Origin: Bdellovibrionota bacterium
GTDB taxonomy: Bacteria; Bdellovibrionota_C; UBA2361; CAKMMH01
Assembly (NCBI GenBank): GCA_050952645.1
Contig: JBMNLI010000016.1
Location: 1-56,392 of the forward strand
Length of the DNA stretch: 56,392 nucleotides
Direction of reading: 5' to 3'
Positions 25,074-52,960 of the stretch are shown piece by piece. The notes under the pieces are model-generated. The model saw nothing but the letters and a program-made list of their open reading frames with translations. It was not told the origin of the DNA and searched no databases. The translations under genes and the position numbers were made by a program. Within the stretch, counting starts at the first letter, position 1. Each line of letters begins with the position of its first letter.

Positions 25074-28000
25074 GTCTTAATCCCCTTACTAATTCGGGTC
25101 GTTTTTTCACGAGGATGTAAAACGTCAAAAAGTTTTTGATTGCATCGGTCTTAATCCCCTTACTAATTCGGGTCGTTTTTTCAATGTAAATGAAAAAACG
25201 ACAGCAAGAAATAAAGACGCTGTTTGTCTTAATCCCCTTACTAATTCGGGTCGTTTTTTCAGAGCGGGGATTAATACAAGAGGGTGGTTATGAATTAGTC
25301 TTAATCCCCTTACTAATTCGGGTCGTTTTTTCTTTAAGAAAGAAATTTGGTTTATTAAGACCGGTGCAGGAGTCCAAGTCTTAATCCCCTTACTAATTCG
25401 GGTCGTTTTTTCCCCAATCCTAGAAGCAATTAATAACAATAAAATAAAAGGTCTTAATCCCCTTACTAATTCGGGTCGTTTTTTCCCTGAAGATGTAGCA
25501 GGGAAGGATGTGATTGGCGTCCTTCCAGTCTTAATCCCCTTACTAATTCGGGTCGTTTTTTCCCGTGAACCAATACATTAAGTATGACCACGACGCAAGG
25601 GTCTTAATCCCCTTACTAATTCGGGTCGTTTTTTCTTCTAAATTTTATGATAGGGATTTAGAGACTGAAATCTCGTCTTAATCCCCTTACTAATTCGGGT
25701 CGTTTTTTCAGAAAAAAAATGAACATACAAAACATTAAAAAATTAAGTCTTAATCCCCTTACTAATTCGGGTCGTTTTTTCTCAGACAGGTGGATTTAAG
25801 TCTGATTTAATATTTTATAATCAAGTCTTAATCCCCTTACTAATTCGGGTCGTTTTTTCTTTCCTTTTTTTAAAAGTTTATTTGCTTCTTTAATCTGCTT
25901 CGTCTTAATCCCCTTACTAATTCGGGTCGTTTTTTCTGTAAGTAAGTATATTCCTTGTTATCCCTCATACAAATGTCTTAATCCCCTTACTAATTCGGGT
26001 CGTTTTTTCTAAAAAGGAGAAAAAAATGAAAGTACAAACAGTAAAAAAGTCTTAATCCCCTTACTAATTCGGGTCGTTTTTTCAAATAACACAGAGGCTT
26101 ATCCAAGTCTTCTAAGGGTTTGTCTTAATCCCCTTACTAATTCGGGTCGTTTTTTCAAGACAGGTGGATTTAACGTTTGGTAACTCTGAAGAGTCTTAAT
26201 CCCCTTACTAATTCGGGTCGTTTTTTCAAAATTACAAGATCGAGATTTTGAGACTAAAATCTCGTATGAGTCTTAATCCCCTTACTAATTCGGGTCGTTT
26301 TTTCTTGGCAATATATGCCAACAGCGTGACGGAAATTCCGTTGGGTCTTAATCCCCTTACTAATTCGGGTCGTTTTTTCAAAATAATATTCGCATCTTTA
26401 CTTTTAACTTGCTCTGCTTGGTCTTAATCCCCTTACTAATTCGGGTCGTTTTTTCATTGATCGATCCTGTCCGTTTTTATATCGACGAGTCTTAATCCCC
26501 TTACTAATTCGGGTCGTTTTTTCTATAGACAGAGAAGTCCCACAACTTAAGACTTGCGAAGTTAAAGGTCTTAATCCCCTTACTAATTCGGGTCGTTTTT
26601 TCAAGCAATAGAGTTGATTTCACCTGTCTGCTACTACATGTCTTAATCCCCTTACTAATTCGGGTCGTTTTTTCAAGAAACAGGCGAGAAAGTGCAATGT
26701 TTGTCGTTGCACTGGGTCTTAATCCCCTTACTAATTCGGGTCGTTTTTTCGAAGATGTAGCAGGAAAAGACATCATCGGCGTGTTGCCAAGTCTTAATCC
26801 CCTTACTAATTCGGGTCGTTTTTTCCCACCACGGGGATAATGGGGACTGCAGTCGAGTTGCTTTCAGTCTTAATCCCCTTACTAATTCGGGTCGTTTTTT
26901 CAGTTTCTTGTTTTTTCTGAAAATTTAAAAGACGAAGAAGCTAGTCTTAATCCCCTTACTAATTCGGGTCGTTTTTTCTAAAAAAGCTGTCATAAATAAA
27001 ATTGCGAAATGTCTTGGTCTTAATCCCCTTACTAATTCGGGTCGTTTTTTCTTTGAGAAAATTTTAGAAAAAGTGTCTATTTGGGCAGTCTTAATCCCCT
27101 TACTAATTCGGGTCGTTTTTTCAAGAAGGTAATAGGGTGCAATGCTTGTCGTTGCACTGGTTGGTCTTAATCCCCTTACTAATTCGGGTCGTTTTTTCTT
27201 TGTCCAAATTAAAAAATCGAGATTTTGAGACTGAGTCTTAATCCCCTTACTAATTCGGGTCGTTTTTTCCTGGGAAAATAACAGCAAGAAATCGAGTTGC
27301 TGTGATCAAGTCTTAATCCCCTTACTAATTCGGGTCGTTTTTTCAGTTAAAGATGATTAATTATTACAAGGAGATAGGTCTTAATCCCCTTACTAATTCG
27401 GGTCGTTTTTTCTCAGACAAGCGCGCCTTTTGATGTTGTTGAGTATGTCTTAATCCCCTTACTAATTCGGGTCGTTTTTTCTATATTGATGCAGGGACTA
27501 ATAACAATCGGGCTTATGATGTCTTAATCCCCTTACTAATTCGGGTCGTTTTTTCTTTGTGCGCCCATACATCAAGTATGACAACGACGCTCGTGTCTTA
27601 ATCCCCTTACTAATTCGGGTCGTTTTTTCTTAACTGCTACAGAAAACTATACAATGATCGCCAAGAATCGTCTTAATCCCCTTACTAATTCGGGTCGTTT
27701 TTTCTTTTTTGAAAAAATGACGATAATATAATTATAAGATAAAGTCTTAATCCCCTTACTAATTCGGGTCGTTTTTTCTTTGTAGCCAATATATTGAATT
27801 TGACAACGACGCTCGTCGGTCTTAATCCCCTTACTAATTCGGGTCGTTTTTTCTCGAGTTGCTGTTTTAAAAAAAATCGTTAAATGTCTTGATGTGTCTT
27901 AATCCCCTTACTAATTCGGGTCGTTTTTTCTTGGATTTAATTTGTAGAAGTTTCTAAGGAGAACATCAAGGTCTTAATCCCCTTACTAATTCGGGTCGTT

Positions 28001-31000
28001 TTTTCCGTTAAATGTCTTGATGTATTGGCACAAGATGAGTTTTGTAGGTCTTAATCCCCTTACTAATTCGGGTCGTTTTTTCTGGCGTCCTTCCAATGGC
28101 GTTAGCAAGTGCAGCTAACACCAGTCTTAATCCCCTTACTAATTCGGGTCGTTTTTTCGAAATCGAGGAGCGGTCTTAAATAAGATTGTCAAGAGTCTTA
28201 GTCTTAATCCCCTTACTAATTCGGGTCGTTTTTTCTCATAGGCGTATTACCAATCGCGTTGGCATCACTGTGCAATGTCTTAATCCCCTTACTAATTCGG
28301 GTCGTTTTTTCCAGGAGGCTCAAGTAATTGATGAAAGAACCAAGTCCGTCTTAATCCCCTTACTAATTCGGGTCGTTTTTTCCATCAAAGACGGTGAGTT
28401 TAAATTAATTACTCACGCAACGTCTTAATCCCCTTACTAATTCGGGTCGTTTTTTCCTATTTGTCTATGGCGAAAATGATTGAGATGTTTGGGTCTTAAT
28501 CCCCTTACTAATTCGGGTCGTTTTTTCTCCAAATTAGAAAACCGAGATTTAGAAGTTGAAATCTCGGTCTTAATCCCCTTACTAATTCGGGTCGTTTTTT
28601 CACGTGCTTATCTTTCAGGAATAATCCATAGCAAGTTGGGGTCTTAATCCCCTTACTAATTCGGGTCGTTTTTTCACCTGTACTGTATATCGCAAGGACA
28701 GAAAATACCCAAGCGAGTCTTAATCCCCTTACTAATTCGGGTCGTTTTTTCGAGATGTTTCTTGAGTTCTGCAAAAGCACGGGACTAAACCCGTCTTAAT
28801 CCCCTTACTAATTCGGGTCGTTTTTTCTTGCAAGGCGTTAAAGAAGAAATGGCAAGCTATTGGTCTTAATCCCCTTACTAATTCGGGTCGTTTTTTCAGG
28901 AGATGGAGTCCGGTTGACTCCAATACAGGAGTTATGGGGTCTTAATCCCCTTACTAATTCGGGTCGTTTTTTCTTAAATTAATTACTCACGCAACAATAG
29001 AAGATATTAAGGTCTTAATCCCCTTACTAATTCGGGTCGTTTTTTCACATCATCTTCATTGATGGCAAGCCGGCTTATAGGTCTTAATCCCCTTACTAAT
29101 TCGGGTCGTTTTTTCAATAAATTATTTGAAAAATGTAAATAAAAAAATGAATACAGGTCTTAATCCCCTTACTAATTCGGGTCGTTTTTTCTTTTTTATG
29201 GAGGTTTTATTATGAAAAAACTATTATTTTGTCTTAATCCCCTTACTAATTCGGGTCGTTTTTTCAGGCAAAAGATATCTGGGTATCCACAGCGGATACT
29301 ACTAGTCTTAATCCCCTTACTAATTCGGGTCGTTTTTTCATTATAGAAAATGTGTCTATTTGGGCAGAAAATATAATGTCCAGTCTTAATCCCCTTACTA
29401 ATTCGGGTCGTTTTTTCAATTGTTAGAGAAGCTGAAAATTGGTTGGCTGATGAAAACCAGGTCTTAATCCCCTTACTAATTCGGGTCGTTTTTTCTTTCT
29501 TGTATGGAAGACAGGTGGATTTAACGTTAGCTAAAGAGTCTTAATCCCCTTACTAATTCGGGTCGTTTTTTCTTACAAAGGAGATTAAAAATGAAAAAAG
29601 AATTGAGTCTTAATCCCCTTACTAATTCGGGTCGTTTTTTCATGGAAGGTTTGAGAGGGCGTTAAAAAACGCCCTAAAAGACACCTGTCTTAATCCCCTT
29701 ACTAATTCGGGTCGTTTTTTCTTTTGAAATCACCGCTTCACTTTCAGACTGCCAGAGTAAGTCTTAATCCCCTTACTAATTCGGGTCGTTTTTTCTGGCC
29801 AGGAAGTATTGACAGCGAAAAAATAAGAAAAGAGCAGGTCTTAATCCCCTTACTAATTCGGGTCGTTTTTTCCTTCGCGTTACGGGATTAAAATGGTATG
29901 ACCCGACATTGGTCTTAATCCCCTTACTAATTCGGGTCGTTTTTTCATAAGCGTGGGCGAATATAAACTAATAACTCACGCTACTGCAGGTCTTAATCCC
30001 CTTACTAATTCGGGTCGTTTTTTCCTGGATGCACAAAACCTATGTAAACAACATTGAAAATGTCTTAATCCCCTTACTAATTCGGGTCGTTTTTTCAGCA
30101 GTATGTTTACGATGTATCTTTATACCATGACCAACGTCTTAATCCCCTTACTAATTCGGGTCGTTTTTTCCGACTATTTCGAGAAAAACAACATTTCTGT
30201 TAATAGTCTTAATCCCCTTACTAATTCGGGTCGTTTTTTCAAAAGTAGCCCTTAAAGGAACCTCATATGAAGATAGGGTATGGGTCTTAATCCCCTTACT
30301 AATTCGGGTCGTTTTTTCTTGGCTCGGCTAAGAGATCGTTTAAGACGAATGCGACAAGGAGTAAGTCTTAATCCCCTTACTAATTCGGGTCGTTTTTTCA
30401 GGATTAAGATGAAAGAAAAAATAGTAGTAACAAGACATAGTCTTAATCCCCTTACTAATTCGGGTCGTTTTTTCTAATGGGGGAAGCAATAGAATTGCTC
30501 GACCCAATCTGTGTGTCTTAATCCCCTTACTAATTCGGGTCGTTTTTTCCTTCCTAAAAAAAATTTAAAATTATTAGTTAGCTATCTTTTTTAGTCTTAA
30601 TCCCCTTACTAATTCGGGTCGTTTTTTCCGTTGCACTGGTTGCAACACCTTTCATATGACGTGGAAAAGTCTTAATCCCCTTACTAATTCGGGTCGTTTT
30701 TTCTTTAATAAGTGTGAATAAAAAAATGACTGCAAGAAACAGAAAAGTCTTAATCCCCTTACTAATTCGGGTCGTTTTTTCATGAAAAAATTTTGAAGTA
30801 CGTGTCGATTTGGGCATCTTCCGGTCTTAATCCCCTTACTAATTCGGGTCGTTTTTTCCCTAACTCTGTGTGCGAAATTGCAATGCACAGGGCAGGAGGT
30901 CTTAATCCCCTTACTAATTCGGGTCGTTTTTTCGGGCTATTGCCCAATAAGTTTAAGGAAAAAGATTGTCTTAATCCCCTTACTAATTCGGGTCGTTTTT

Positions 31001-33351
31001 TCTTTTTCTAAAATGTGGAGCAGAGAAGAGTTAGAAAACCTTTCGTCTTAATCCCCTTACTAATTCGGGTCGTTTTTTCTGAAAAGGTTATGAAATGTTT
31101 GAATGTATTGGCTAACGATGAGGTCTTAATCCCCTTACTAATTCGGGTCGTTTTTTCTTATACAGAAATCGAAGGAGATCTTAGCCGTGATAAAATTATG
31201 GTCTTAATCCCCTTACTAATTCGGGTCGTTTTTTCATAGTCAGATAACAAATGGAAATTTTGAGAGGGCATTAAAAAACGTCTTAATCCCCTTACTAATT
31301 CGGGTCGTTTTTTCACGACCAAGCTGGAAGAATCAACCTTTCAGCAGATGAAAAGTCTTAATCCCCTTACTAATTCGGGTCGTTTTTTCAGACGTTTTAA
31401 GAGAGATATCATCATCTGGAAACTGTCTTAATCCCCTTACTAATTCGGGTCGTTTTTTCATTTTTGGAAATATTTTGAAATTAAAAAACCACAAACGTCT
31501 TAATCCCCTTACTAATTCGGGTCGTTTTTTCATTAAGACTGGGCAAGGCGTTCAAATGATGACCGGAAGTCTTAATCCCCTTACTAATTCGGGTCGTTTT
31601 TTCAATTATGAAAAGTCTTGATATATTGGCTAACAATGAGTTCGGTCTTAATCCCCTTACTAATTCGGGTCGTTTTTTCAAAAGGAAAAGCTAGAGAATA
31701 TTCACCTTTAGCTTTAAGTCTTAATCCCCTTACTAATTCGGGTCGTTTTTTCACACACAGGTATCCATAGCGGTTATTATTATGGTGTAACCGGTCTTAA
31801 TCCCCTTACTAATTCGGGTCGTTTTTTCATTATGAAAGCTTTTCCTATTTTGTCAAAAGATGATTTCGTCTTAATCCCCTTACTAATTCGGGTCGTTTTT
31901 TCGAAATAAATTATTTAAGAAGTGTTAATGGGAAGATGACGTCTTAATCCCCTTACTAATTCGGGTCGTTTTTTCTGTATTGGCTCACGACGAGTTCGTA
32001 AGCCAATATAGTCTTAATCCCCTTACTAATTCGGGTCGTTTTTTCTATGAAAGCTTTTCCTATTTTGTCAAAAGATGATTTCGTCTTAATCCCCTTACTA
32101 ATTCGGGTCGTTTTTTCTAAAATATGGAAAAAATAAACAACGGAATTTTGAAAGGTCTTAATCCCCTTACTAATTCGGGTCGTTTTTTCTAGGAAAGCTG
32201 AAAATTGGTTGGCTGATGAACAGATAACCAGTCTTAATCCCCTTACTAATTCGGGTCGTTTTTTCATGAACAGACGGGTGAAAGGGTGCAAGATTTATTA
32301 TTGGTCTTAATCCCCTTACTAATTCGGGTCGTTTTTTCGAAATTAATATGTAAAAGAATTGATGCAATTGAGGGTCTTAATCCCCTTACTAATTCGGGTC
32401 GTTTTTTCATTATAAGATAAAAAATCAATTATTTATGGAGGTAAAAAATGGGTCTTAATCCCCTTACTAATTCGGGTCGTTTTTTCGACGAGTTCGTAAG
32501 CCAATATATTGGCTACGATCGTGTCTTAATCCCCTTACTAATTCGGGTCGTTTTTTCTCTCCATAGAGGCTTTTTTGCTTCCGCACTTGAAATAAAGGTC
32601 TTAATCCCCTTACTAATTCGGGTCGTTTTTTCTCATCAAAAAGATTATTAAGAGTCTTGATGTATTGGCTCACGAGTCTTAATCCCCTTACTAATTCGGG
32701 TCGTTTTTTCAAGCCAATATATTGGCTACGTTACTGGTGCAAGACGAGTCTTAATCCCCTTACTAATTCGGGTCGTTTTTTCAGAATTATTGATAATAGG
32801 AAGTAGTTTAAACACAATTTCTGTCTTAATCCCCTTACTAATTCGGGTCGTTTTTTCCAATGCTTGTCTTTTCATTGGCTTCAGTGCCTTTCTGTCTTAA
32901 TCCCCTTACTAATTCGGGTCGTTTTTTCGTGGCTTTAGAAGTTTCTAAGGAGAACATCAAGGTGGTCTTAATCCCCTTACTAATTCGGGTCGTTTTTTTC
33001 TAAAAAACAATTCCATGATTAGCCCATTCGGGCATTCGTGTCTTAATCCCCTTACTAATTCGGGTCGTTTTTTCTTATTTGGGAAAAGGAGATAAAATAT
33101 GGAAAAATTAAGTCTTAATCCCCTTACTAATTCGGGTCGTTTTTTCTGGCTACGATCGTGATGCTAGACGATTAAGTCCCTTTGACTGTCTTAATCCCCT
33201 TACTAATTCGGGTCGTTTTTTCATATTGATGGGAAACTTGAAAAGTTTACATCTGAAACGTTAAGGTCTTAATCCCCTTACTAATTCGGGTCGTTTTTTC
33301 TTATCAGCGTTATGATACTGCAATCCCCTTACTAATTCGGGTCGTTTTTTC
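25074..33351 (-). CRISPR. Type III CRISPR array; 35-bp repeat, about 111 full repeats plus one truncated, about 111 spacers (mostly 33-46 nt)
   Basis: Repeat on + is GTCTTAATCCCCTTACTAATTCGGGTCGTTTTTTC; transcribed strand GAAAAAACGACCCGAATTAGTAAGGGGATTAAGAC (8-nt tag ATTAAGAC). Leader lies next to cas2. Counts are manual. Confidence 0.98.
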
Positions 33352-33611
33352 CGCGTCTCTTTTTTACACTGGTTTTTCCAGTATAAAAACTCCTCTTTTC
33401 GCAGACCTTAAAGACATTCTTATAAATTACTCCTTTTTAAATTAAAAAACAAGAAAAATCTTTTATAACTTATTAGATTTTCAATGTTTCTTAATAATCG
33501 CAGACCTAAATATATTTCAATAATAGTAAACCCTTACTTCTACCCTTATTCTATTGTGTAAAAACACTTTTCGGGCTTCCGTAAATAAAAACAAACAATA
33601 GGTCTGCGATC
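33352..33611 (-). promoter_or_regulatory. Leader of the type III array
   Basis: AT-rich non-coding region between cas2 and the first repeat, with three copies of TCGCAGACCT. Confidence 0.8.
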
Positions 33612-33890
33612 CTATAAAATTATATATGTTTTACTAAAATCTATATATTCTCCTAGACCTATTATATCATTCTTTTTACTACATTCACCACAAAGTGGAA
33701 ATAATTTTACTCCATCTAAATCTGGTTCTATTTCTTTTTTTATTCGTTTAGTCATCGCTAAAAAACTTTTCGGACTTAACGAAACCTCAAAAATCGATCT
33801 CTGGACTCTCTTTCCAAAATCCTCCATCACTTTAGCAATACGCCTTAAACGTCCCGGGTTCGCTATATCATAACAAACTAACACTATCAT
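33612..33890 (-). CDS. cas2: CRISPR-associated endonuclease Cas2
   Basis: LVCYDIA..RLRRIAK, RVQRSIFE. Confidence 0.95.
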   Translation of the reverse strand: MIVLVCYDIANPGRLRRIAKVMEDFGKRVQRSIFEVSLSPKSFLAMTKRIKKEIEPDLDGVKLFPLCGECSKKNDIIGLGEYIDFSKTYIIL

Positions 33891-33912
33891 AATATAAACT
33901 TATCCCCCATTT

Positions 33913-34188
33913 TTAAAAAATCTGATAATTAACATTCGTAACTTTTAATCCCTTGCCTAAAATAATCTCATTTTCAATGCAAGTCGAACATATCCTATAA
34001 ATTCTAAAAGAATCTTTCTTCAAATTTAAATTCATAGCAGCATAAGCTCTAATTTCTCCTAACTGCTCTAAAGTAATATCACACTCAAATACAGACTTTT
34101 GAGTATTCTGTCCGTAGCCTAATAAAAACTTATGCATCTTTATTAATCTTTTCGGACTCGCTATATCATACGTAATAACCGTTATCAT
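33913..34188 (-). CDS. cas2: CRISPR-associated endonuclease Cas2 (second paralog)
   Basis: VITYDIA, QKSVFEC, DSFRIYRIC. Confidence 0.93.
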   Translation of the reverse strand: MITVITYDIASPKRLIKMHKFLLGYGQNTQKSVFECDITLEQLGEIRAYAAMNLNLKKDSFRIYRICSTCIENEIILGKGLKVTNVNYQIF

Positions 34189-34249
34189 AACTTCCTAACT
34201 TTACTTCTAATACTACAATTATTTTAATACTAAAATTGTCTTTTAAACA

Positions 34250-35410
34250 TTACCTTAATAATAATGGCACATACTCACCAACATCACCCTCAATTACTCT
34301 TCTATAATATCTAGCTTGAAAATTAATAGCATCTAAATATGTAAGCTCCTTTCCTGCTAATGAGTGGTAAAACTTAGTTGATAATTTCTTTTCAAAAGCT
34401 TCAATAACTTTTCTAATCGAAGTATCTACTATCTTTATTGGATACTTGCCAGTCGTGTTTATATTTTCTTCTAATATTTCAGAAACTCTATGTTCAGGAA
34501 GTGGCGTGAAATCATCATCAAGAGTATAAGGTCTCATAAGCCCGATAGGGTCATTTACAACTTTACTTAAATCACTTATCTCTCCTTCTTCCTTAGCTTC
34601 TTCAATAGGAGACACCTCCTCTCTTTCAAAAGAAGAATCGTTTAAAATTTCTAAATTCAAAATAGAAAGCATTAAAGTATCAGCTATTATCGGTCTAAAC
34701 TCTTCCATTAAATCAAATACTAAAGAATATCTTCCATAATCGAGAGTGTGAAGAGTTCCTACATAAGGCTCTAATGATGCAAGTCTTATAGCAATATAAA
34801 CCTTGTTCATTAAAAAAGTATATAATAATGATAGAAGCGAATTTACAGGATCCGTCGGCGGTCTTCTTACTCTCTTTGTAAATCCCCAATCTTTTGTTAA
34901 ACCGTATTGCAAAGCAGAAAAATATAGTGCAGAACCTCTACCCTCATAACCTCTTACGCTATCTACACTCTTTGCTTCACCTATATCATTTAAAAGCATT
35001 CTTATTTGCCCAGCTTTATCCTTGGCTATCGATGATTTTTTTGTGCGTGAAATTCGCATTAGCACTGTAATTAAATTAGTTAATTTTCCTATTACTATAC
35101 TTTTAGATGTTTTTAAACAAAACTCTTTATCTTCAGACAGTAAAAATTGCTTTCGTCTTAAAAATATATTTTTAGGTTCTTCTTGTGCTAATCTTCCTAT
35201 ATATTTACCATTTTGAGCTAGGAACACTGCATCGATACCAAACTTAAAAATAAGAACTATTGCAGGATGTGTAATTTTTATATTACCTATTATTACTATT
35301 TGAGAAACTGCGTGAGTGAAAATTGTATGAGAATACTCTCCTTTTTTTATTACTAGATTGCGACCTACTTTTACAAGCTCAGAGCCTTGCTCCGTTAGGT
35401 AAACTATCAT
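34250..35410 (-). CDS. cas1: CRISPR-associated endonuclease Cas1 (type III-associated, with acidic insertion)
   Basis: RGYEG, RRPPTDPVNSLLS, GTLH, SLVFDLMEEFRP. Confidence 0.97.
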   Translation of the reverse strand: MIVYLTEQGSELVKVGRNLVIKKGEYSHTIFTHAVSQIVIIGNIKITHPAIVLIFKFGIDAVFLAQNGKYIGRLAQEEPKNIFLRRKQFLLSEDKEFCLKTSKSIVIGKLTNLITVLMRISRTKKSSIAKDKAGQIRMLLNDIGEAKSVDSVRGYEGRGSALYFSALQYGLTKDWGFTKRVRRPPTDPVNSLLSLLYTFLMNKVYIAIRLASLEPYVGTLHTLDYGRYSLVFDLMEEFRPIIADTLMLSILNLEILNDSSFEREEVSPIEEAKEEGEISDLSKVVNDPIGLMRPYTLDDDFTPLPEHRVSEILEENINTTGKYPIKIVDTSIRKVIEAFEKKLSTKFYHSLAGKELTYLDAINFQARYYRRVIEGDVGEYVPLLLR

Positions 35411-36946
35411 TTAATCACCTAAATATTTTTTTACATCTTCTATCATTGCTTTAGTTTCTTTTGAAAAAAACCATCCTTTACTTCCATTGCCTTTTTCAAT
35501 GTTACTCTTTTTTTCATTTATCGCTTCAATAAAAAAAGGAGCAAGTATTTTTTTATATTTATCACTTTGCTTCCTAAAATCACTCTTATATGTTTTATCT
35601 ATTGCATTTGCATACTTACACTTATCAACTATCTTTTTTAAATCATCAGGCATATTTGCTATTTGCTTTTCTTGCTCTTCTTTAATTTTTTTTTGCTCTT
35701 CTTCAATCTTCTTTTGTGCTAACTCCTCTTTTTCTCGCTCTTTTAAAATTTCCTGCATTTTTAATTTTTCTTGTTTTAAATTTTCTTCCATTTTTGCTTG
35801 CTCTTTTTTTATGCTCTCAGATAATTTTTTCATTTCATCTAAAGACAATTCCTTCAAAGAAGCCCAAGAATAAAATTCAAGACTATTTTGATTTCTTATT
35901 TCATACGTTTCATTTGCACACCAAATCGTAGTCGTTCCCGAAAGACTTTTTTTGATTTGTCCTATTTCTATACTTCTACTATTTTTTATAGTCACTCCTT
36001 CTGCACCTGAATGTCTTCCAATTTGCATAGGATATTCATCATTTGGAATAGCACTTTTAAGCTTTATTTGATACGATCTTCCATCTATATAATACGGTCT
36101 ATTTTCAAGATTAGTTAACATTTCACCATAAAACCGATTTGTAGAATTAAATAATATTTTTTTATCTATAGTTTTTTTTACAATATTATTATCGATAGGT
36201 TGCATAATCGTAATTTGACCTAAAAACTTACTCCCAGTAGGGATAACTTCTAACCGTTGCTTAGACGTTAAGTTTTTACCACTATTTTTTTTCTTAAAAT
36301 TCCTTAAGTAAACGATTTTTGTTTTTATATCGCCTATAGGAAGAAAATCTGAAACCTTTACTAGTCTAAAAGGATCTGTTTCTGTTTCATTTTTATTACA
36401 ATTTAACAATCTACATTCAAAACCTTTTGAATCCTTGTTTTTTTCTTGTTGAGTTGCAGACTTATTCTCCTTATCTGCAATCAGATTTAAATAAGCCGTT
36501 CTTAAACTTCCTTTCACAGATGAACCAGGAATATAAGGTTTCCCAGTCTTTTTTAAAAACGCAGTCCTATCGATTACAAATTGATCATATGATTTAGCAT
36601 TTTCGTATTCTTTTTTATATTCTTTTGCAATCCCTATTTTTTTATAATTTAACGATTCGACATTAAGCTTTTGTATATAATCACAAACTTTCTTTATGCC
36701 ATTCTTTTCATTTATCTTTTCATCTAATAAAAGCTTAGAAAGTTCTTTTCTTTGCGATTTATCCATAAGCCTTGCAAGTTCTAATGGATCGTAAACTAAT
36801 ATTTCACCATCACCGACCTTATAACTAATAGGATCATAAATCTCATCACAACCAATATGTATAGGAGAACGTGTCGTTAATATAACATCTATTACTTGCA
36901 TTGCTTGCTTACTTTCATTTATCATAAACTTAACTCTCCTTCCCAA
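35411..36946 (-). CDS. csm5: Type III-A RAMP Csm5 with charged C-terminal extension
   Basis: TRSPIHIG, PYIPGSSVKGSLRTA, DPFRLVKVSD, IGRHSGAE. Confidence 0.9.
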   Translation of the reverse strand: MGRRVKFMINESKQAMQVIDVILTTRSPIHIGCDEIYDPISYKVGDGEILVYDPLELARLMDKSQRKELSKLLLDEKINEKNGIKKVCDYIQKLNVESLNYKKIGIAKEYKKEYENAKSYDQFVIDRTAFLKKTGKPYIPGSSVKGSLRTAYLNLIADKENKSATQQEKNKDSKGFECRLLNCNKNETETDPFRLVKVSDFLPIGDIKTKIVYLRNFKKKNSGKNLTSKQRLEVIPTGSKFLGQITIMQPIDNNIVKKTIDKKILFNSTNRFYGEMLTNLENRPYYIDGRSYQIKLKSAIPNDEYPMQIGRHSGAEGVTIKNSRSIEIGQIKKSLSGTTTIWCANETYEIRNQNSLEFYSWASLKELSLDEMKKLSESIKKEQAKMEENLKQEKLKMQEILKEREKEELAQKKIEEEQKKIKEEQEKQIANMPDDLKKIVDKCKYANAIDKTYKSDFRKQSDKYKKILAPFFIEAINEKKSNIEKGNGSKGWFFSKETKAMIEDVKKYLGD

Positions 36947-37902
36947 GGTACTACTATTGAAAAAGCTTGTTGAAGCACATTGCCATCGTACTGCTTAGAA
37001 ACACCTTGCAATGCACTTCCTATAAAAGGCTTGCTTAATCTTTTATCATTTTTTACCTTAAAAACTGCACTCTCGTCTATCATTAAAATCGGATTCTTAA
37101 AAGGGTTTCCTTTAAATACAGACGCATCTCCATGTTTTCCAAACTTAGTAATAGGTTGATAATATATTTCTTCAAAACAATCATTTTCGCCATAAACAAA
37201 AGGAGATAGTGTATAATAATTATCTTTTTCTAAACTAGGAAGTTGGCACTCAAAATGATTTTCTATATTAAATTTTCCCATACCTATCGAAGCATCTTTT
37301 CCAAATCCAAACTTTCCTATATTTGTTAATGCTTTGGTGATGCCATCTAAGCTTGTTTTATTTTCATCAAATAAAATAAATATAGCTAATTTATACTCAG
37401 GCGATATGTAAGTTTTTTCTGCTCCATAAGGCGCAAACTCTTCGCTAGTAGTAGTAAAAGTTTCTCTATTTATTTTATTATGCATAGCATTTTCTTTTTT
37501 TAAAATATTTTTATGCTCTTCATAATTTTCAATACTACTAATAGTAAAGTTTTTTTCTATATCTTCTTTAGCTACTGAAAAATATCGCTTTTCTTTTTCT
37601 GCTTTTCTATATTTTACATCATCAGACTTAGGAATTTTTTCGACATCTATATTACTTAGAAGCGATGGCTTTTTAAAAATATACTTATCGTCTTTATAAT
37701 AAAAAGCTGATGAAAAAATTATGCTTGGGTTTTGCCCATTATAATCTTTAATAAAATCATCAAACGAGACTTTTAAAATATCTTTATTATAAACACACTG
37801 CCAACAAAAAGAACCAAAAAGCGTATCACCTCTTAGCTTTGTAGAAAAAGCAGATATTGGTTTTAAAATAAAACTGTATAACTTATAGTTATTATTATCC
37901 AT
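36922..37902 (-). CDS. csm4: Type III-A RAMP Csm4
   Basis: RGDTLFG, HNKINR, GFGKDASIGMGKF. Confidence 0.92.
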   Translation of the reverse strand: MDNNNYKLYSFILKPISAFSTKLRGDTLFGSFCWQCVYNKDILKVSFDDFIKDYNGQNPSIIFSSAFYYKDDKYIFKKPSLLSNIDVEKIPKSDDVKYRKAEKEKRYFSVAKEDIEKNFTISSIENYEEHKNILKKENAMHNKINRETFTTTSEEFAPYGAEKTYISPEYKLAIFILFDENKTSLDGITKALTNIGKFGFGKDASIGMGKFNIENHFECQLPSLEKDNYYTLSPFVYGENDCFEEIYYQPITKFGKHGDASVFKGNPFKNPILMIDESAVFKVKNDKRLSKPFIGSALQGVSKQYDGNVLQQAFSIVVPWEGELSL

Positions 37903-37925
37903 TCATAGCTTCCTGTATTTTTAAA

Positions 37926-38705
37926 TTATTTTTTTCTTTCTTTACTTAACTTATTTTGCATATTCTCATCATCAAAAGTAAACTCGACTTTTCCATAGCC
38001 TCTACTACCAGAAGCACCCAAAGCATCTTTTTCCAATAAAGCTATACCTTCGATAAGTTTTTTTTCATATTTATTTAACTCTCCTTTATCCCCATCTCCT
38101 TTATTCTTATCTTCTTGATTATCTTCTTCACTTCCTTTATTTATATTAGTCGAAAAGATTTTTAATGAAATATTAAACTTAAATTTAACTCCAGCTACAA
38201 CCCTCTCAATAAATCTAGGATTTTCAGCAGTGCCTTTTATTCTATTTATTGAATTTTCAGCTTTTACTTCATACAAATTTTCTTCATCATTAGATTCAGC
38301 CAAATTACAATCAGAAAAAATAAGCCTCGTAGGACCTCCTGTATATTTATCAGAGCTATCTGCTCCTGCACCAAAAAGCTCGATTATTAAATCTATATCT
38401 TCTTGATCATCATATTTTTTTCTATTCTCATCATCATTCTTACTAGGTTGGAGGACACTACTATGAAAATTATGACCTAAAGGCTTTCCATTTGTAGAAG
38501 TTATAGCAGATGTTTTTAACTCTAATAAAGAGCGAATTTTCCCTTTTAGCGATGAGCCAGGTATATAAGGTTTTCCTGTTTTAGAGTTTTTTATAACTGG
38601 CGAATCTGTTCCACCTATATGCATAGCAACATCACCAGCACCAATATGTAAACCACTTTTTAATTCTATCGTTCCTGTGTATTCTTTAATTTCTTTTAAT
38701 TGCAT
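37926..38705 (-). CDS. csm3: Type III-A RAMP Csm3
   Basis: GLHIGAG, GGTDSPV (catalytic Asp retained), PYIPGSSLKGK, NPRFIERV, LGASGSRGYGKV. Confidence 0.95.
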   Translation of the reverse strand: MQLKEIKEYTGTIELKSGLHIGAGDVAMHIGGTDSPVIKNSKTGKPYIPGSSLKGKIRSLLELKTSAITSTNGKPLGHNFHSSVLQPSKNDDENRKKYDDQEDIDLIIELFGAGADSSDKYTGGPTRLIFSDCNLAESNDEENLYEVKAENSINRIKGTAENPRFIERVVAGVKFKFNISLKIFSTNINKGSEEDNQEDKNKGDGDKGELNKYEKKLIEGIALLEKDALGASGSRGYGKVEFTFDDENMQNKLSKERKK

Positions 38706-38738
38706 AATTACCTCTCTTTGAAATTTTATTTTTAAACG

Positions 38739-39158
38739 TTAATCTTCTTTTGGGCAGTAAAACTTATAAAATGCTATAAAAGATTCAAAAAACAATGTAG
38801 CATTTTTTAAATCTTTATAATCTTTAATTTGCCCTATAATATTTTTTAAAAAATTATAAAAATTAATTGATATCAAATTACGTCCTCTAGCGTATGCAGC
38901 TTTTGCAACAATCATATTTACTAAGGGTAAACACTCGTCAAATTTCGCTTCTTTATTATCTGAATTATTTACTATGTCATTATATTTTAATAATTCATCA
39001 AAGAATTTTCTTATTTGGCTCTGCTTATCTATATCTTTTGCACTCTTTTTTCTATCATCTGCTATACATTTTGCTTTTCCCTCAGCCACATCAGAAAATA
39101 ATGTTGAACGTATTTTTTTATTATTTTTATCATCATAAAATTTAAAATTTTCTTCCAT
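38739..39158 (-). CDS. csm2: Type III-A small subunit Csm2
   Basis: SQIRKFFDE, AKAAYARGR, FFESFIAFYK. Confidence 0.92.
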   Translation of the reverse strand: MEENFKFYDDKNNKKIRSTLFSDVAEGKAKCIADDRKKSAKDIDKQSQIRKFFDELLKYNDIVNNSDNKEAKFDECLPLVNMIVAKAAYARGRNLISINFYNFLKNIIGQIKDYKDLKNATLFFESFIAFYKFYCPKED

Positions 39159-39163
39159 ATTCT

Positions 39164-41890
39164 CTACCTATTCCCCCTTATATTATATAAAATTGTCCAA
39201 AGTGAAATCCTTAGTTTTGAACGATTTTCGCTAATCGTGTCGACTAAAAATCCATATAACTCTTTAATATCTTCATCACTAAGCTCTACATCACCAATTT
39301 TTCTTTTTACATTTCTAGTGCATTGGTATGCTAAATGAGATTTCCATCTCATACATTCGCACGATTTAATATCACACCTATCTTCACTCATAAGCTTCTT
39401 TTCATCTTCACTCATTCTAATATAATTATTTAAACTATATAAAAATGAAGTCGATATGCGACCTTCATTATATAATTCACACACTTTATCATTAAACTTA
39501 TCTAGTGCTTTTAAATCTTTTTTATTAAAAGAAACAGTTTCATTAAAAACCGTTAAAGCATTTTTCCCTGTATTGTCTTTTGATTGATTTAATGCTTCTT
39601 CTACATTGTATCTCATCATAGGAACTGGGATATTATCTTTACATATAAAAATACCTGCAGAAAAATGTAAGAAAGTGTTGTTTCCAACATAGCTTTTAAA
39701 TTTTTCGCTTAAGTCTCTAGCTAAATCTATAATTACATTCCAAGGACCTATTAAAAATAAATCATCACCACCACCAAACACCGTATAAACGGCTTTGTAA
39801 AGCTCTTTATCTTTACTATCACCGCCATTTTGTAAATAATACGGCAGATAATATGCAAAAAAGAAATTCAACTGCCTGCTTAAAGTTGCCATACGTGAAA
39901 CCGTATATCTATCATCTTTTAACCCACACGCCATTATCGCACCTAAATCATCAACGTCAGCCTTTAAAACTCCAAGTGCATTTATAGGACCATCATCATT
40001 TTCTTTTTTAATTTTTATTCCTGTTGCTTCATACAAATTCGCTTCTTCTGCAATCGCTTCAAATGTTCGAACATCTTCTTCATCAATTGGTTTATATTTA
40101 GGCACATAACCGCTTATAAATTTCTTTGCAACAAAAACCTTATTTGTATCTTGCGCACTACTAGCAACGCTTTTAGTATCAGCATCTTCATAAATACCAT
40201 AATCCCAAACCTTATATAAAAAATCACACTTTAATAAATCTTTAATAACCTGCTCAATATTTACGGTACAAATAGCAAAGTCTTCAAAAACATCTATTAA
40301 GCTTACTTGTTTTTTTGAGCTTTCACGTAATCTTTCACCGTAATCTTCTCTATATCCTTTATTTACAACTACTAAATATCTATTTTTAACGAATTCTTTA
40401 CCAAAACTTTCAAAGTCTTTACAAATCTTACACTTCCCATCTGCTTTTATAGGTCTTTTACCACAATAACTACAAACATTTTGAGCATTTTCAAATTTAT
40501 CTAAATAATCTGTAAATACTCCAAAATCTTCACGCTCAAATTTCTGATTTTTCTCTTTATCCATTTCTTTATGCAATCTATTATTTAATATTCTATAAGA
40601 ACCAGATTCTGCAAAATCATTTGAGCTAGCTTCTACAAAAGTTAAACCAAAATAACATTCACCATAAAAATTTTCTTTAAGCCAATCGTTTATTTCTTTT
40701 CTTATAGCTTTAACTTTTTCCTTAGCCTCGTCAATATTCGGTGCTAAAATCTTAAAGTTAGCCCCAGCATTAAAGATAACGCTCGTATGTGGCAAACCTA
40801 ATTCACTGCAAATCTTACTAGCAGCAAGTTCTGCATAAATACTTACCATAACTGAGCGAGCTCTTAAAATCTTTGATGCATTCTTATTACTTTCGCCTGA
40901 AAAATCACCAAAAATAAAATTTTGAATTCCGAAAAAATCACCAGCAATCAAAATAAACTTATTCTTCTCTCTCTCTTGCTTACTACTTAAATCTACCTTT
41001 CCTAAATCTTTAAATGGGTCTTTCTCAGTTTCAGATTTTTTATGATATAGATATAATGCGGTAGAAAAAGCAGAGGTTGCTAAACTATGATCGTATAGCG
41101 AAGTGTCTTTTAAATTTCCACGTGCTCTTGCTTCAGGGATATTGCATGCATACTTTAGCCATAAACTATCAAACGCCTCAAACCATAATCTTTCAGCCCC
41201 CTCTCCCTTTACACAATTCGATTTCTCTCTTACTTCTTTTTTAAAATCTTCTAATAACTTTTCATAATCTGAAATCGCTTGATCTTTTTCAATTTTATCT
41301 AAGACTTGCGGAAAGATACTCTTAGGCGTCATTTTATTTAACTCAAACTTGTATTTATCATCGCTGTTTGAATCGATATTATTTTCTTTATTAATTTCTC
41401 CATTATTTTTTTCAACATTTTTTAATTCAACTTCCGATAATACAGAAATAAGTCTAGTGCTTAAATAATCTTTTGGATAAACGTAATCTTCAGAGTTGAC
41501 TCTTTCTCTTTTACTTGATAAGCAATCTGCCTCTTTAATAATATTTACATACGGCGTTAAAAAAGTATCAATTCCATTATTATTATTTAAATGATGTCTT
41601 GCAGACATATAAACTAACGGTTCGCCATCACCCCAATCTTTACTCGTTAAAAACTTTGGGAATCCAAAATTCTCATCTTCTATCGCTAAGCAAGTATATA
41701 GTGCATGTTTGTGGGTATAATTTCCATTTTTATTAGGTAAGATATGCGTTTCAGAAGCTTTATATTTTTCATCATAGTCATTTCTTGTCTTTTCATCAAT
41801 TTCTACAAGCTTTCCTAAGTCATGCATAAATCCTGCAATCGCTACTTTTAATGTTGTTTTATCTAGCTCTATATTTTTCATACGCTCCAT
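39164..41890 (-). CDS. cas10: Type III-A Cas10/Csm1 with HD nuclease and cyclase palm
   Basis: MHDLGK HD motif, SLYDH, CSYC..CKIC, LKADVDDLG, GGGDDLF (GGDD intact). Confidence 0.97.
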   Translation of the reverse strand: MERMKNIELDKTTLKVAIAGFMHDLGKLVEIDEKTRNDYDEKYKASETHILPNKNGNYTHKHALYTCLAIEDENFGFPKFLTSKDWGDGEPLVYMSARHHLNNNNGIDTFLTPYVNIIKEADCLSSKRERVNSEDYVYPKDYLSTRLISVLSEVELKNVEKNNGEINKENNIDSNSDDKYKFELNKMTPKSIFPQVLDKIEKDQAISDYEKLLEDFKKEVREKSNCVKGEGAERLWFEAFDSLWLKYACNIPEARARGNLKDTSLYDHSLATSAFSTALYLYHKKSETEKDPFKDLGKVDLSSKQEREKNKFILIAGDFFGIQNFIFGDFSGESNKNASKILRARSVMVSIYAELAASKICSELGLPHTSVIFNAGANFKILAPNIDEAKEKVKAIRKEINDWLKENFYGECYFGLTFVEASSNDFAESGSYRILNNRLHKEMDKEKNQKFEREDFGVFTDYLDKFENAQNVCSYCGKRPIKADGKCKICKDFESFGKEFVKNRYLVVVNKGYREDYGERLRESSKKQVSLIDVFEDFAICTVNIEQVIKDLLKCDFLYKVWDYGIYEDADTKSVASSAQDTNKVFVAKKFISGYVPKYKPIDEEDVRTFEAIAEEANLYEATGIKIKKENDDGPINALGVLKADVDDLGAIMACGLKDDRYTVSRMATLSRQLNFFFAYYLPYYLQNGGDSKDKELYKAVYTVFGGGDDLFLIGPWNVIIDLARDLSEKFKSYVGNNTFLHFSAGIFICKDNIPVPMMRYNVEEALNQSKDNTGKNALTVFNETVSFNKKDLKALDKFNDKVCELYNEGRISTSFLYSLNNYIRMSEDEKKLMSEDRCDIKSCECMRWKSHLAYQCTRNVKRKIGDVELSDEDIKELYGFLVDTISENRSKLRISLWTILYNIRGNR

Positions 41891-41926
41891 TATAAAAAAT
41901 TTTTTAACTTTTTAACAGCCTTTTAA

Positions 41927-41957
41927 AAAATATCAACGTTGACACTTTTTATTGCAA
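41927..41957 (-). promoter_or_regulatory. Putative cas10-operon promoter with internal palindrome
   Basis: Minus strand TTGCAA-N19-TATTTT; palindrome TCAACGTTGA at 41933-41942. Confidence 0.4.
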
Positions 41958-41979
41958 ACTTTTTCTTTAAAATTACTAC

Positions 41980-43068
41980 TTAACCCTCTAATATTTCAAA
42001 CAAATTCTTTGACAAACTTATTCCACATTTAGTATCTTTACCCTTACTAACACTACTTATACATATTTGATTAACCGTTGAAAATTCAAAATGTTCTAAA
42101 AATTTCTTTTTAATTTTACTTTTATATGAATTAAAATTTTCTTTAGAAATATCTTTAATTCCAGTAGTTGATAAATTATATTTTTTATTTGAGATTTTAT
42201 CATAAGTTTTTGATGCATTTTTACAAAAATCATTTAAACTTTCAGACCTATTTAAATAGCAATCAAAACAGTTTTCGCATTCTTTATTTTTACAATTAAA
42301 TTTTATTTTCTTATACACAAAATATAAATAAAATGCAAAAAGCGATGATTGAAGTCTGCAAGATATATCACCTATGCTTATCGTTTGATCTGGAATATTT
42401 ATAATGACTTTTTGTTTTTTATAATCATTAGTATTATTTACTAGCTCATTAACTGGCAAATTTAAAATCGTAGCTAAATTAAGATTAGATGAAAGTTTTA
42501 CATAAGGCATCTTTATTAAAGAAAAATGCTCTTCTTTATCTTTAGAAACTATATCTTGCAAGTATTTAGGAAGACTTTTTATTTTATCTTTAGGCAATTT
42601 TCCTGACGGACTTAATGTGTAAATCGTATCTTGTTCTCTTCCGAACAACTGTGCGGATAATGAAAGACAAGAACTCATACCTTTCATTCCACCTGTAATT
42701 AAAAATGATATTCTAGAATTTTTATTTAAATATTTTTTCGTAATTTCAAAACATTCTTTTAAAAATAGCTTATTATCATCTTCCGTTAAAATAGTTTCTA
42801 TGGGCTTTCCTTTTTTATTTTTAGGAACGATTAGACACTTATTATCGAAATCAAAATCTAGCTTGTATTCTTTTTTAAATTTTTCTAATGCACCATTTTT
42901 TAATAAATTATTTACGAATACTTCTTTTCCTTTATTCGTAGTTATTATATACACTTTATTTATTTTAACCGTCTTATCTATTACAAAAGACTTTAGTGCA
43001 GATAACAGGACTTTATATTCTAGCCCAATAGTTGCAATTAATATGTTTTCCATAAAAAAACACCTCAA
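41980..43068 (-). CDS. NE0113/Csx14-family CARF protein with Cys-rich, putative DNA-binding C-terminal domain
   Basis: ILIATIG, IITTNKG, ITGGMKGMS..LSAQLFGREQD CARF motifs; CKNKECENCFDC; FNSYKSKIKK helix. Confidence 0.8.
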   Translation of the reverse strand: MRCFFMENILIATIGLEYKVLLSALKSFVIDKTVKINKVYIITTNKGKEVFVNNLLKNGALEKFKKEYKLDFDFDNKCLIVPKNKKGKPIETILTEDDNKLFLKECFEITKKYLNKNSRISFLITGGMKGMSSCLSLSAQLFGREQDTIYTLSPSGKLPKDKIKSLPKYLQDIVSKDKEEHFSLIKMPYVKLSSNLNLATILNLPVNELVNNTNDYKKQKVIINIPDQTISIGDISCRLQSSLFAFYLYFVYKKIKFNCKNKECENCFDCYLNRSESLNDFCKNASKTYDKISNKKYNLSTTGIKDISKENFNSYKSKIKKKFLEHFEFSTVNQICISSVSKGKDTKCGISLSKNLFEILEG

Positions 43069-43095
43069 CTTTAATAAAAAAGCAACTCTTTAAAA

Positions 43096-44139
43096 CTAAG
43101 ATATAACTTCTATTTTTCCTAGTCCAAATGAGGTTTGCTTTCCTAAATGTATAATTTTTGCTACTTCAAGAAGTGGCATAAAAATTTCTAAATCTCCCTT
43201 ATACTTTATTTCTCCTAGAAGCCCACCTAGGAACATCGAGCGTTCTTGTCTTAATGAATATCTTTTTCTATCTTCCCAGTAAGTATTATCTTCTATTATC
43301 TCTACTGCCTCCGCCTCTTTAAGGAGCGTTTCAGTGTCGATTAACGAAACTTCGCTTCCGTACATTTTAAATAAAGTATCTATTCGCCTTAGTATAACTA
43401 TAATAAGCGTTTTGAAACTTAATTTATTGTTTAAAAAACTTTTTTGTTTAAATCTTAGTGGAGTTTCTAAAATTACATTTATTATATTAGTTTTATTGTT
43501 TAAAAATTTTTCGAAAAACTCTTTATCGATAACGATAAGCTCATCTTTTACGATTCCATTATTTATTTCTTTACTTATCTCTGAATATACCTGTTTTTGA
43601 TTTATTAAAACTTGAGAAAGAGTAAAGGAAGTTCTTTTCCCATCTCTATCTTTTTTTCCGAAACCAATCTTACCCATTTCTATAATAGCATAAATAAAGT
43701 ATGAAATATTAAATATATATTCACCAAAAAGAATTAAATTAAATATAAAATAATCTCCTTTTTGGAATCTAGTTCTTTCATTATCTAAAGTGTCAATTAT
43801 ATATGGAGGCGATGAGGAATATATTCCTTGTTTTTTTAATTCTTCGTCATCTCGTTCAAAAATTTTTGCATATAAACAATTTTTTTTTATTAAACACCCT
43901 TCGCAATCTTTATCTTCTAAGCCACAAGAGATTCTTTGAAGTGCACGACCAAAAACTCCCCTAAATGTAGAGCCTTTAAACTTTGGCAAAATACAATCTC
44001 TATCGAACTTACATTTAAAAGTAAACTTAGCTACATTTAGAGATTGGGCTATATTTCCATAAATATTTTTACTAGTTTCTTTACTTGTATCTAAACTTAT
44101 ATTTTCTTTCATAAATTTATCATATTTTATATTGTTCAT
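43096..44139 (-). CDS. cas6: CRISPR RNA-processing endoribonuclease Cas6
   Basis: FKGSTFRGVFG, Cys cluster, RYSLRQ, HLGKQTSFGLGK G-loop. Confidence 0.93.
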   Translation of the reverse strand: MNNIKYDKFMKENISLDTSKETSKNIYGNIAQSLNVAKFTFKCKFDRDCILPKFKGSTFRGVFGRALQRISCGLEDKDCEGCLIKKNCLYAKIFERDDEELKKQGIYSSSPPYIIDTLDNERTRFQKGDYFIFNLILFGEYIFNISYFIYAIIEMGKIGFGKKDRDGKRTSFTLSQVLINQKQVYSEISKEINNGIVKDELIVIDKEFFEKFLNNKTNIINVILETPLRFKQKSFLNNKLSFKTLIIVILRRIDTLFKMYGSEVSLIDTETLLKEAEAVEIIEDNTYWEDRKRYSLRQERSMFLGGLLGEIKYKGDLEIFMPLLEVAKIIHLGKQTSFGLGKIEVIS

Positions 44140-44521
44140 ATTTTCTAAACATTACGTGTTTGAAAATGCGACTAATTTTTATTTCACCAGTTTCTAGAGT
44201 TTCCTCTATAGCTTCTCTTTTCGTTGTAGCATAGATGGGAATTAGTCCTAATTTAAAAGCACATTCAACCATATAAAAAGTAGCCCCGAAATCTCCTTGG
44301 ACGAGTAAAAAATCCTTCTCTTTTCCTATATTTTTTAGCCAACTAATTATAGGGGACAAGTAATTTTTTAATGATATTACATTTGCAGGAACTTCTCCCC
44401 AAGCTTTTTGAATTTCACTATTAGGATAAATAAAGTTATCTACTAGCAGATGTTCTTTAGCATCGAGTTCTTGCTCTAAAGTTAAGTGATGATTAAATAA
44501 AGTTATAAAAGATCTTTTCAC
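44120..44521 (-). CDS. csx20: CRISPR-associated protein Csx20 (putative cOA ring nuclease)
   Basis: LFNHHLTLEQ, LVQGDFGATFYMV, PIYATTKR, FKHVMFRKY match the Csx20 pattern; downstream of the CARF effector. Confidence 0.85.
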   Translation of the reverse strand: MKRSFITLFNHHLTLEQELDAKEHLLVDNFIYPNSEIQKAWGEVPANVISLKNYLSPIISWLKNIGKEKDFLLVQGDFGATFYMVECAFKLGLIPIYATTKREAIEETLETGEIKISRIFKHVMFRKYEQYKI

Positions 44522-46010: not shown

Positions 46011-46121
46011 TCCTTTTAAAAAATAAATGTTTATTACACTTTCTAATTCTTTATAGAAAATACCATTTTTTAGAACCACTTTGCAAGCCATGACACAAAC
46101 TAGCCACGTTGCTAGTTTTTT
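46011..46121 (-). repeat. Direct repeat copy 1 (hairpin + promoter + 5' UTR) upstream of csx1
   Basis: Near-identical to 55265-55371, including TTTATAGAAAATACCATTTTTTAGAACCACTTTGCAAGCC. Confidence 0.92.
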
Positions 46122-46186
46122 ATCTCATTTTTTCCTTATTTTCTGCCTTATTTCTAATGGCTAAAGGCAGTAAATTAAATATAGGC

Positions 46187-47240: not shown

Positions 47241-47439
47241 CACAATATATTGAATATTTCAATATACTATAGACAATATATTGTGCTTTGCAGGAAAACA
47301 CAACTTACTATTAAAAAAAATATCTAATGATTTTGAACGGAAATTAGGCGAACCTACTAAATATTTAACATCACATTAGGTTCGCATAGAAGTAATACTC
47401 AATCTTTTTTAAATTTATCAACCTACATTATAACAATTT
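47241..47439 (-). promoter_or_regulatory. Leader of the type I-C array
   Basis: AT-rich; inverted repeats CACAATATATTG/CAATATATTGTG (47241-47285) and GCGAACCTA/TAGGTTCGC (47348-47385). Confidence 0.8.
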
Positions 47440-47730
47440 TTACACTATCAAAACACCCTCAGAATCATACGTTTGTTTTGCACCAATATGCTCTATTCTT
47501 CGTTGCCAGTTATTCCCCAAATAATAAAATCTTAAACTATCTTTCTCCTTATCTATTATTTTTATTAAATCATCTTTTAATTTTAAAAATTTTGAATAAT
47601 CCAAATTCGCTTCAAATACTGAGTTTTGCACCCTTTGAGCATGATTTTGACATTTTTTAGCTACTCGCCTTAATCTTTTTCTACCATCGGCATCAACAGT
47701 AGAAACATCATAACTTATCAATACCATCAT
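47440..47730 (-). CDS. cas2: Cas2 (type I-C)
   Basis: MMVLISYDV...GRKRLRRVAKKC, RVQNSVFE, DSLRFYYLG. Confidence 0.97.
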   Translation of the reverse strand: MMVLISYDVSTVDADGRKRLRRVAKKCQNHAQRVQNSVFEANLDYSKFLKLKDDLIKIIDKEKDSLRFYYLGNNWQRRIEHIGAKQTYDSEGVLIV

Positions 47731-47763
47731 TTTACTATATCTCCTATCACTTTACAATCACTC

Positions 47764-48789: not shown

Positions 48790-48794
48790 GCATA

Positions 48795-50349: not shown

Positions 50350-50399
50350 TATTCCTTTTTAAAAAATACAAAAAATTTATAAACTTGCTCTAATTTGTC

Positions 50400-52876: not shown

Positions 52877-52960
52877 TTAAGATATTCCTTTAAAAATATT
52901 TTTAAAAACTATTAAGTAAAATTTTTCTAAATAAATTAACAAAAGATTATATTATATAAA

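Follow-up and report, generated by a model that had tools for sequence, protein, structure and literature searches.

A natural type III-A CRISPR array tiles diverged versions of one 145-residue gene, likely an early gene of uncultured phages

INTRODUCTION

Type III CRISPR systems are described as favouring early phage genes. Type III-A spacer acquisition was reported to peak just downstream of an early phage promoter, regardless of interference and whatever the absolute transcript level, and the peak falls on a cro-like gene or on the first gene of the variable region, anti-CRISPR genes included (PMC13575424). In Thermus thermophilus, type III spacers concentrate on early genes with a strand bias that is described as arising by selection; escape deletions are large in a non-essential target and frame-keeping in an essential one (PMC7515739). 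Spacer tiling has been used to assemble viral contigs (PMC6858448). Here, we analysed a contig of a Bdellovibrionota bacterium (JBMNLI010000016.1 of assembly GCA_050952645.1; 56,392 nucleotides (nt), called the window below), which carries a type III-A CRISPR array at 25074-33300 whose 110 spacers, 33-46 nt long, lie between 111 repeats, each of 35 nt. This array tiles diverged versions of one 145-residue gene, which, at a probability of about 0.6, is a conserved early gene near a strong promoter in related uncultured phages.

RESULTS

Spacer peptides retrieve the target protein

A first-pass annotation, made from the sequence alone, had proposed that about 20 spacers, nearly a fifth of the array, converge on one stretch of about 60 codons in a hypervariable gene. 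A profile of 12 staggered spacer peptides retrieved a single protein among 635 candidates, P0001 (133 amino acids (aa), E 1.5e-12). With P0001 as query, P0002 (145 aa) and P0003 (144 aa) were found, both 65-69% identical to it. The spacers were placed on alignment A7 of the full proteins, for which the shuffle maximum was 30.7 (1100 shuffles) and the best opposite-strand frame scored 31.7. At a score above 33, 37 spacers out of 110 match the target gene, without exception on the same strand; with the spacers at the start and stop codons there are about 40. The earlier count was too low. Spacer 31829 (score 29.8) is excluded from the 37. The 99th percentile of the shuffles is exceeded by 38 of 110 spacers and also by four opposite-strand frames. 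The probability that at least 37 spacers fall by chance on a 470-nt target is 2e-12 if the element measures 5 kb and 3e-32 if it measures 20 kb.

The placed spacers cover nearly the whole 145-codon gene and not one stretch of 60 codons, in which 20 of the 37 midpoints lie (first 60 codons; binomial p 0.06; Kolmogorov-Smirnov (KS) test against uniform p 0.16). All 19 spacers named in the first-pass annotation fall on this one real protein family; the fragments do not come from unrelated loci, and the spacer groups that it did not join up correspond to the middle and C-terminal portions of this protein. Over the residues compared, spacers 30704, 31976, 32487 and 33147 match P0001 exactly. Spacer 29573 spans the ribosome-binding site (RBS) and the start codon, and three spacers span the stop codon. 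The gene was sampled in every fifth of the array (7, 11, 5, 6 and 8 spacers). Along the gene, the spacers are:

29573..29606 (+), RBS and start spacer, reads MKKEL as in P0002
31903..31940 (+), codons ~5-16 (same part: 29116-29156, 30704-30746, 25183-25225, 27270-27309)
27854..27895 (+), codons ~20-32, older allele (same part: 28159-28200, 26979-27016, 28006-28047)
32633..32675 (+), codons ~24-36, newer allele (same part: 31080-31122, 31604-31644, 31976-32010)
32487..32522 (+), codons ~38-49, identical to P0001 (same part: 27556-27594, 25563-25600, 27779-27818, 32711-32747)
33147..33187 (+), codons ~45-57, identical to P0001 (next along the gene: 28898-28938)
30475..30514 (+), codons ~63-74, missed in the first-pass annotation (same part: 26826-26866, 26603-26639, 26456-26488)
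26675..26715 (+), codons ~80-92, likewise missed (same part: 32266-32303, 27123-27163, 32858-32893, 30629-30668)
27052..27087 (+), codons ~106-117, likewise missed (same part: 30782-30823, 29340-29382)
28528..28566 (+), codons ~122-134, likewise missed (same part: 27199-27234, 25636-25674, 26228-26269)
29496..29537 (+), last codons and stop (same end at the DNA level: 26157-26192, 25782-25824)
31829..31867 (+), more distant variant, weak placement (score 29.8), with a near-exact repeat at 32046-32082

Among 5995 spacer pairs, 28 same-strand overlaps reach a score of at least 11; opposite strands gave 0, as did shuffled spacers. The exact overlaps of 15, 22 and 13 nt that had been proposed to join 32633-32675, 31976-32010, 32487-32522 and 33147-33187 were verified. 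For the proposed chain of an older allele, the first join holds with 18 nt, and the second is short, at 7 nt. The N-terminal third of the consensus assembled earlier is a chimera of alleles, not an exact DNA chain.

The target gene is diverse and conserved in frame

In 90 overlapping spacer pairs, the mean nucleotide identity was 72%. Six spacers are mutually incompatible, and therefore at least six alleles were met. The proportion of synonymous differences (pS) was 0.60 and that of non-synonymous differences (pN) 0.20, giving a pN/pS of 0.33 (regional values 0.27-0.43; Jukes-Cantor dN/dS 0.19). Spacer 29496 was excluded from the column and regional counts because of an alignment gap. At a depth of at least 5, 38 columns are invariant, and two columns carry 5-6 different residues. 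A second target of the array, a Csx16-like gene described below, served as comparator (pS 0.62, pN 0.23, pN/pS 0.38). On these sequence comparisons, the target gene is under purifying selection and, contrary to the earlier claim, not specially hypervariable. Since the Csx16-like target is equally diverged, the diversity would be that of the invader population and not peculiar to the target gene.

Mismatch between overlapping spacers increases with their distance in the array (rho 0.37, permutation p 0.001), which agrees with the older allele proposed earlier, older alleles lying farther from the leader. The spacers identical to P0001 are numbers 76, 93, 100 and 109, all in the newer third.

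The target protein matches no known family

The target protein has no match in Pfam, in PADLOC or, at E<=10, among PDB sequences; PHROGs gave no significant match (best E 0.014, to a family of unknown function) and the ESM Atlas no usable one. That the family was not recognised in the first-pass annotation is therefore borne out. A three-way profile gave no further members beyond P0001-P0003 among 541 candidates. When 91 order-level and 124 phylum-level genomes were searched with profiles, the array itself was the sole match. In INPHARED phages, matches to the array were not beyond chance and the target protein had no match; PLSDB plasmids gave no target-gene locus (one match at E 0.8), and IMG/VR motif scans for the gene gave 0 matches. 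The search for the consensus peptide in viromes and metagenomes, which had been suggested earlier, was likewise negative: IMG/VR protein-pattern scans gave 3 and 99 pattern matches and a GTDB scan gave 37, none confirmed as the target protein, and the six loci of a single metagenome scan were all unrelated when inspected. The profile search of 1.84 billion representatives was made with the spacer-fragment alignment A6 only, not with the full proteins, and distant relatives may therefore be missed; it returned P0001 and P0004. P0004 was rejected as a family member (hhalign probability 3%), and an alignment combining full proteins and fragments was discarded as misaligned.

P0001, P0002 and P0003 are each a singleton cluster on a short contig (1186, 1235 and 3166 bp). 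They are hydrophilic, with a net charge of +1 to +11 in the first 55 residues and of -3 to -5 in the last 30. A predicted structure, also suggested earlier, did not help: the AlphaFold model is unusable, with a mean predicted local distance difference test (pLDDT) score of 42, and a Foldseek search against BFVD gave 0 matches at E<=0.001, which is meaningless at that score. As judged from these searches, the gene appears to belong to no known family and would define a new conserved orphan family.

The array belongs to a type III-A system

The array and its surroundings comprise the following features:

25074..33300 (-), type III-A CRISPR array, CRISPR RNA (crRNA) probably read from the minus strand
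33301..33620 (-), short spacer of 21 nt, repeat lacking 5 bases (33322-33351) and likely leader; conserved with G001, a genome of the same genus
33612..45999 (-), type III-A cas operon, right of the array

The operon contains cas1 without a reverse transcriptase (RT) domain, csm5, csm4, csm3, csm2, cas10, an NE0113-family CARF gene, cas6, csx20 and a TIGR02221/Csx1-type CARF gene. Cas10/csm1, csm2, csm3, csm4 and csm5 all exceed the NCBIfam cut-offs, and Cas1 (34250-35410) and cas6 (PF10040, 43096-44139) both lie beside the array. The operon also has two open reading frames (ORFs) of about 92 aa, which are putatively cas2-like. An RT domain was looked for in Cas1 (386 aa) and was not found; of 12 RT matches in the host genome, none is on the contig with the array. 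The one host RT copy that was examined is a group II intron protein, and the remaining copies are near-identical to it. The array belongs to the type III-A system and not to an RNA-acquiring RT-Cas1 type.

The right flank of the array is conserved with G001 at equal distance from the last repeat. The leader would therefore lie on the right, crRNA would be transcribed off the minus strand, and coordinates would be highest for the newest spacers. This orientation gains weak support from the minus-strand repeat, which folds with a 3-bp stem (z -1.2). With crRNA from the minus strand, the plus strand of the spacers is the mRNA sense of the target, so that, given the crRNA direction that we infer, 37 of 37 placed spacers yield crRNAs complementary to messenger RNA (mRNA). 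In agreement with this, patterns of RBS plus ATG occur in nine spacers on the plus strand and in 0 on the minus strand. Placement and strand support the earlier claim that the spacers sample one protein-coding gene of an invader in mRNA sense beside a type III-A system. Elsewhere in the 1.95-Mb host genome, a full-length self target was found for none of the spacers.

Several observations concern the locus itself. At 33301-33351, the leader-side repeat lacks 5 bases and its spacer has only 21 nt; the first crRNA or further acquisition could suffer, or this may be an assembly error. The pyrimidine-rich spacers 25860-25901 and 26380-26420 read better on the other strand and are possibly non-protective spacers of opposite orientation. 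A type I-C locus at 46041-55371 has cas3 split over several ORFs and an array ending in 16-17-nt spacers; this module is bounded at both ends by an 81-nt direct repeat (93% identical). About ten near-identical group II intron copies lie on G000 contigs C6, C7, C10, C12, C15 and C17 (L037), where they adjoin a 94-bp element that is itself dispersed in about 25 further copies.

A second hotspot resembles Csx16

Besides the target gene, a second group of spacers and a promoter-like chain were found:

25486..25527 (+), strong spacer of the Csx16-like hotspot (also 26751-26790, 26305-26344, 28083-28123, 28236-28276, 28974-29011, 30400-30439)
28383-28421 and 29947-29989, added to the Csx16-like hotspot by overlap
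27705..27743 (+), spacer chained by 11 nt to 32409-32451

On three viral PF09652 (Csx16) proteins, seven spacers can be placed in order, with scores of 33-66 (shuffle maximum 27.7). The alignment to the viral proteins spans about the first 60 residues, and the 7-9 spacers tile the N-terminal two thirds of the Csx16-like gene. Since the motif that led to the three viral proteins had been derived from two of these spacers, those two are not independent. The Csx16-type motif gave 11 viral loci, of which three are PF09652; the remaining eight are noise or proteins of other kinds, and the target gene is absent from all 11. The host genome has no PF09652 match and carries csx20. By its similarity to PF09652, the second target is likely a phage-borne ring nuclease, which would act against the CARF effectors and cyclic tetra-adenylate (cA4) signalling of the host. 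Csx16 is described as degrading cA4 and as present in 2 of 28,114 phage genomes (PMC12409355). In G001, L020:1396-1677 is a Csx16-like ORF with an internal gap, and no obvious cas gene is seen among the ORFs of this 3-kb locus.

The chain of 27705-27743 and 32409-32451 looks, by eye, like a sigma-70-type promoter followed by a leader and an RBS, and has no link to the target gene. Spacers 29418-29460, 32190-32230, 31236-31279 and 29642-29686 seem to form a chain that represents a third target gene. Additional pairs are 27931/32929, 29266/31753, 25333/31532 and 32118/33075, and no family was found. Motifs from other spacer groups gave three unrelated loci or nothing.

DISCUSSION

By analogy with the published systems, the pattern is best read as the known preference of type III systems for early phage genes, met here in nature and in an extreme form. 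Early expression, the position of the gene and its function are what we infer, and published precedent makes the early phage gene plausible. Cas1-Cas2 would preferentially sample DNA that is transcribed first after injection, and survival would then keep spacers whose crRNA pairs with mRNA. Each arriving relative, differing at about 28% of bases, would evade the older guides and be resampled at the same gene, and repeated resampling might have turned the array into a time-ordered record of alleles. High expression, as claimed in the first-pass annotation, does not follow from this, since the bias described in PMC13575424 does not track absolute transcript abundance. Because the three versions keep length and frame, the phages probably cannot drop the gene. 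Its small product, basic towards the N-terminus and acidic at the tail, would most likely act as infection begins, by binding DNA or the machinery of the host. It may be regarded as a candidate host-takeover protein, whereby takeover or anti-defence is a guess: a takeover or regulatory role comes near to an even chance, some other function is possible at best and anti-defence rather unlikely.

Several points weigh against a repeatedly sampled early phage gene. A 5' peak like the one in PMC13575424 is not clearly seen (p 0.06; KS p 0.16). The promoter-like chain enters a start codon followed by G, and in spacer 29573 the ATG is followed by A; the target may therefore not be the first gene. Only short contigs (1186, 1235 and 3166 bp) are known to carry it, the phage context being deduced, and at a model pLDDT of 42 its function is without structural support. 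The estimates of dN/dS come from spacers picked by protein similarity, from non-independent pairs and from near-saturated synonymous sites. Over all spacers, identity to P0001 does not depend significantly on array position (rho 0.29, p 0.10), and one identical 14-nt overlap spans 47 spacers.

The target could also be an anti-defence protein whose gene neighbours that of the Csx16-like ring nuclease in an early cassette of anti-CRISPR genes, with guides persisting because they remove the inhibitor mRNA before it acts. The cA4-degrading Csx16 (PMC12409355) as likely identity of the second hotspot (seven strong spacers), the CARF genes and csx20 of the host locus and the size of 145 aa fit this possibility, and the early variable regions of S. 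thermophilus phages are described as carrying anti-CRISPR genes (PMC13575424). However, a linkage of the two genes is hypothetical, and the protein has no match in PDB sequences or named families. Transcription-linked acquisition accounts for the hotspot whatever the function of the gene, the published hotspot gene being a cro-like repressor (PMC13575424), and the target gene, which is hit throughout the history of the array, looks more like a core gene than an accessory one. We therefore consider this explanation doubtful. Paralogs in one phage genome, for example in a repeated early cassette, would enlarge the target several-fold beyond 435 nt, and copy number would then explain part of the hotspot. 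The nucleotide identity of 72%, the at least six incompatible versions, the different sequences after the stop codon and the distant variant at 31829/32046 are all compatible with such a cassette. Because divergence rises with array distance (p 0.001), a succession of related invaders probably fits better than the paralog family that had been suggested, and the same synonymous divergence in the Csx16-like target (pS 0.62 vs 0.60) points to population-wide diversity, which leaves paralogs improbable.

If the invader were a very small element (a single-stranded DNA or RNA virus, a satellite or a mini-plasmid), the gene, possibly for a coat protein, would be a large share of it and no early-gene bias would be needed. 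The three database contigs are all 1.2-3.2 kb long and few targets fill much of the array, but even a uniform 5-kb target gives 2e-12. The strict strand bias, the RBS-ATG patterns in nine spacers, which suggest many small genes, and a Cas1 without RT, together with a host RT that, in the copy examined, is a group II intron protein, also speak against it, so that this explanation is very improbable. Hypervariability driven by CRISPR pressure or by a diversity-generating retroelement could account for the many alleles and the two columns with 5-6 residues; it is largely refuted by a pN/pS of 0.27-0.43 in every part of the gene, equal to the comparator, and by the 38 columns invariant at a depth of at least 5.

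With the repeated sampling of one early phage gene as the preferred reading, a single natural array keeps a chronological record of six or more related invaders, and the published early-gene bias would be seen at an extreme inside it. Spacer peptides alone can retrieve a real protein, an approach that could be repeated on other long type III arrays in search of early genes and anti-CRISPR candidates. The orphan protein nominated here comes with three full or near-full sequences, about 40 allele fragments and 38 invariant positions, and stems from likely phages of an uncultured host for which the searches made found no phage genome. It is a long shot that this protein founds a new family of anti-type-III or host-shutoff proteins, is retained by every phage of the group and is paired with the viral Csx16 in one early cassette. 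If so, nearly half of the array would be spent on destroying two counter-defence mRNAs, and long type III arrays would be ranked lists of undiscovered first-strike phage proteins.

Comparison with known systems

A keyword search, which cannot reach an unnamed protein, found no report of a comparable single-array case. The second hotspot, not the target gene, is similar to the viral ring nucleases Csx16 (PF09652) and AcrIII-1 as described in PMC12409355: it aligns to viral PF09652 and is known from spacer fragments alone. As in the Sulfolobales CRISPRome, overlapping spacers rebuild unknown viral sequence; there, community-wide spacer sets are described (PMC6858448), whereas here a single array covers one gene several-fold. 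The case of T. thermophilus and the early genes 40-49 of phage phiFa (PMC7515739) also combines a Cas1 without RT with phage spacers that almost all pair with transcripts and concentrate in a small region. It is described for a laboratory infection with one phage, ten genes and escape by deletion, in contrast to the point divergence among at least six alleles with the frame kept that we observe. Most similar in kind is the type III-A hotspot of Streptococcus thermophilus (phage 2972 ORF31/cro-like), where one small gene is targeted by mRNA-complementary spacers, also in natural arrays (PMC13575424). According to this source, those arrays average four spacers, pooled over 640 systems and mapped on known genomes, whereas here one array directs about 40 spacers at one family-less gene without a clear 5' peak. 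Two features of the published hotspot, the mRNA-complementary strand and the concentration (37 of 110 spacers on one gene), are found in this array.

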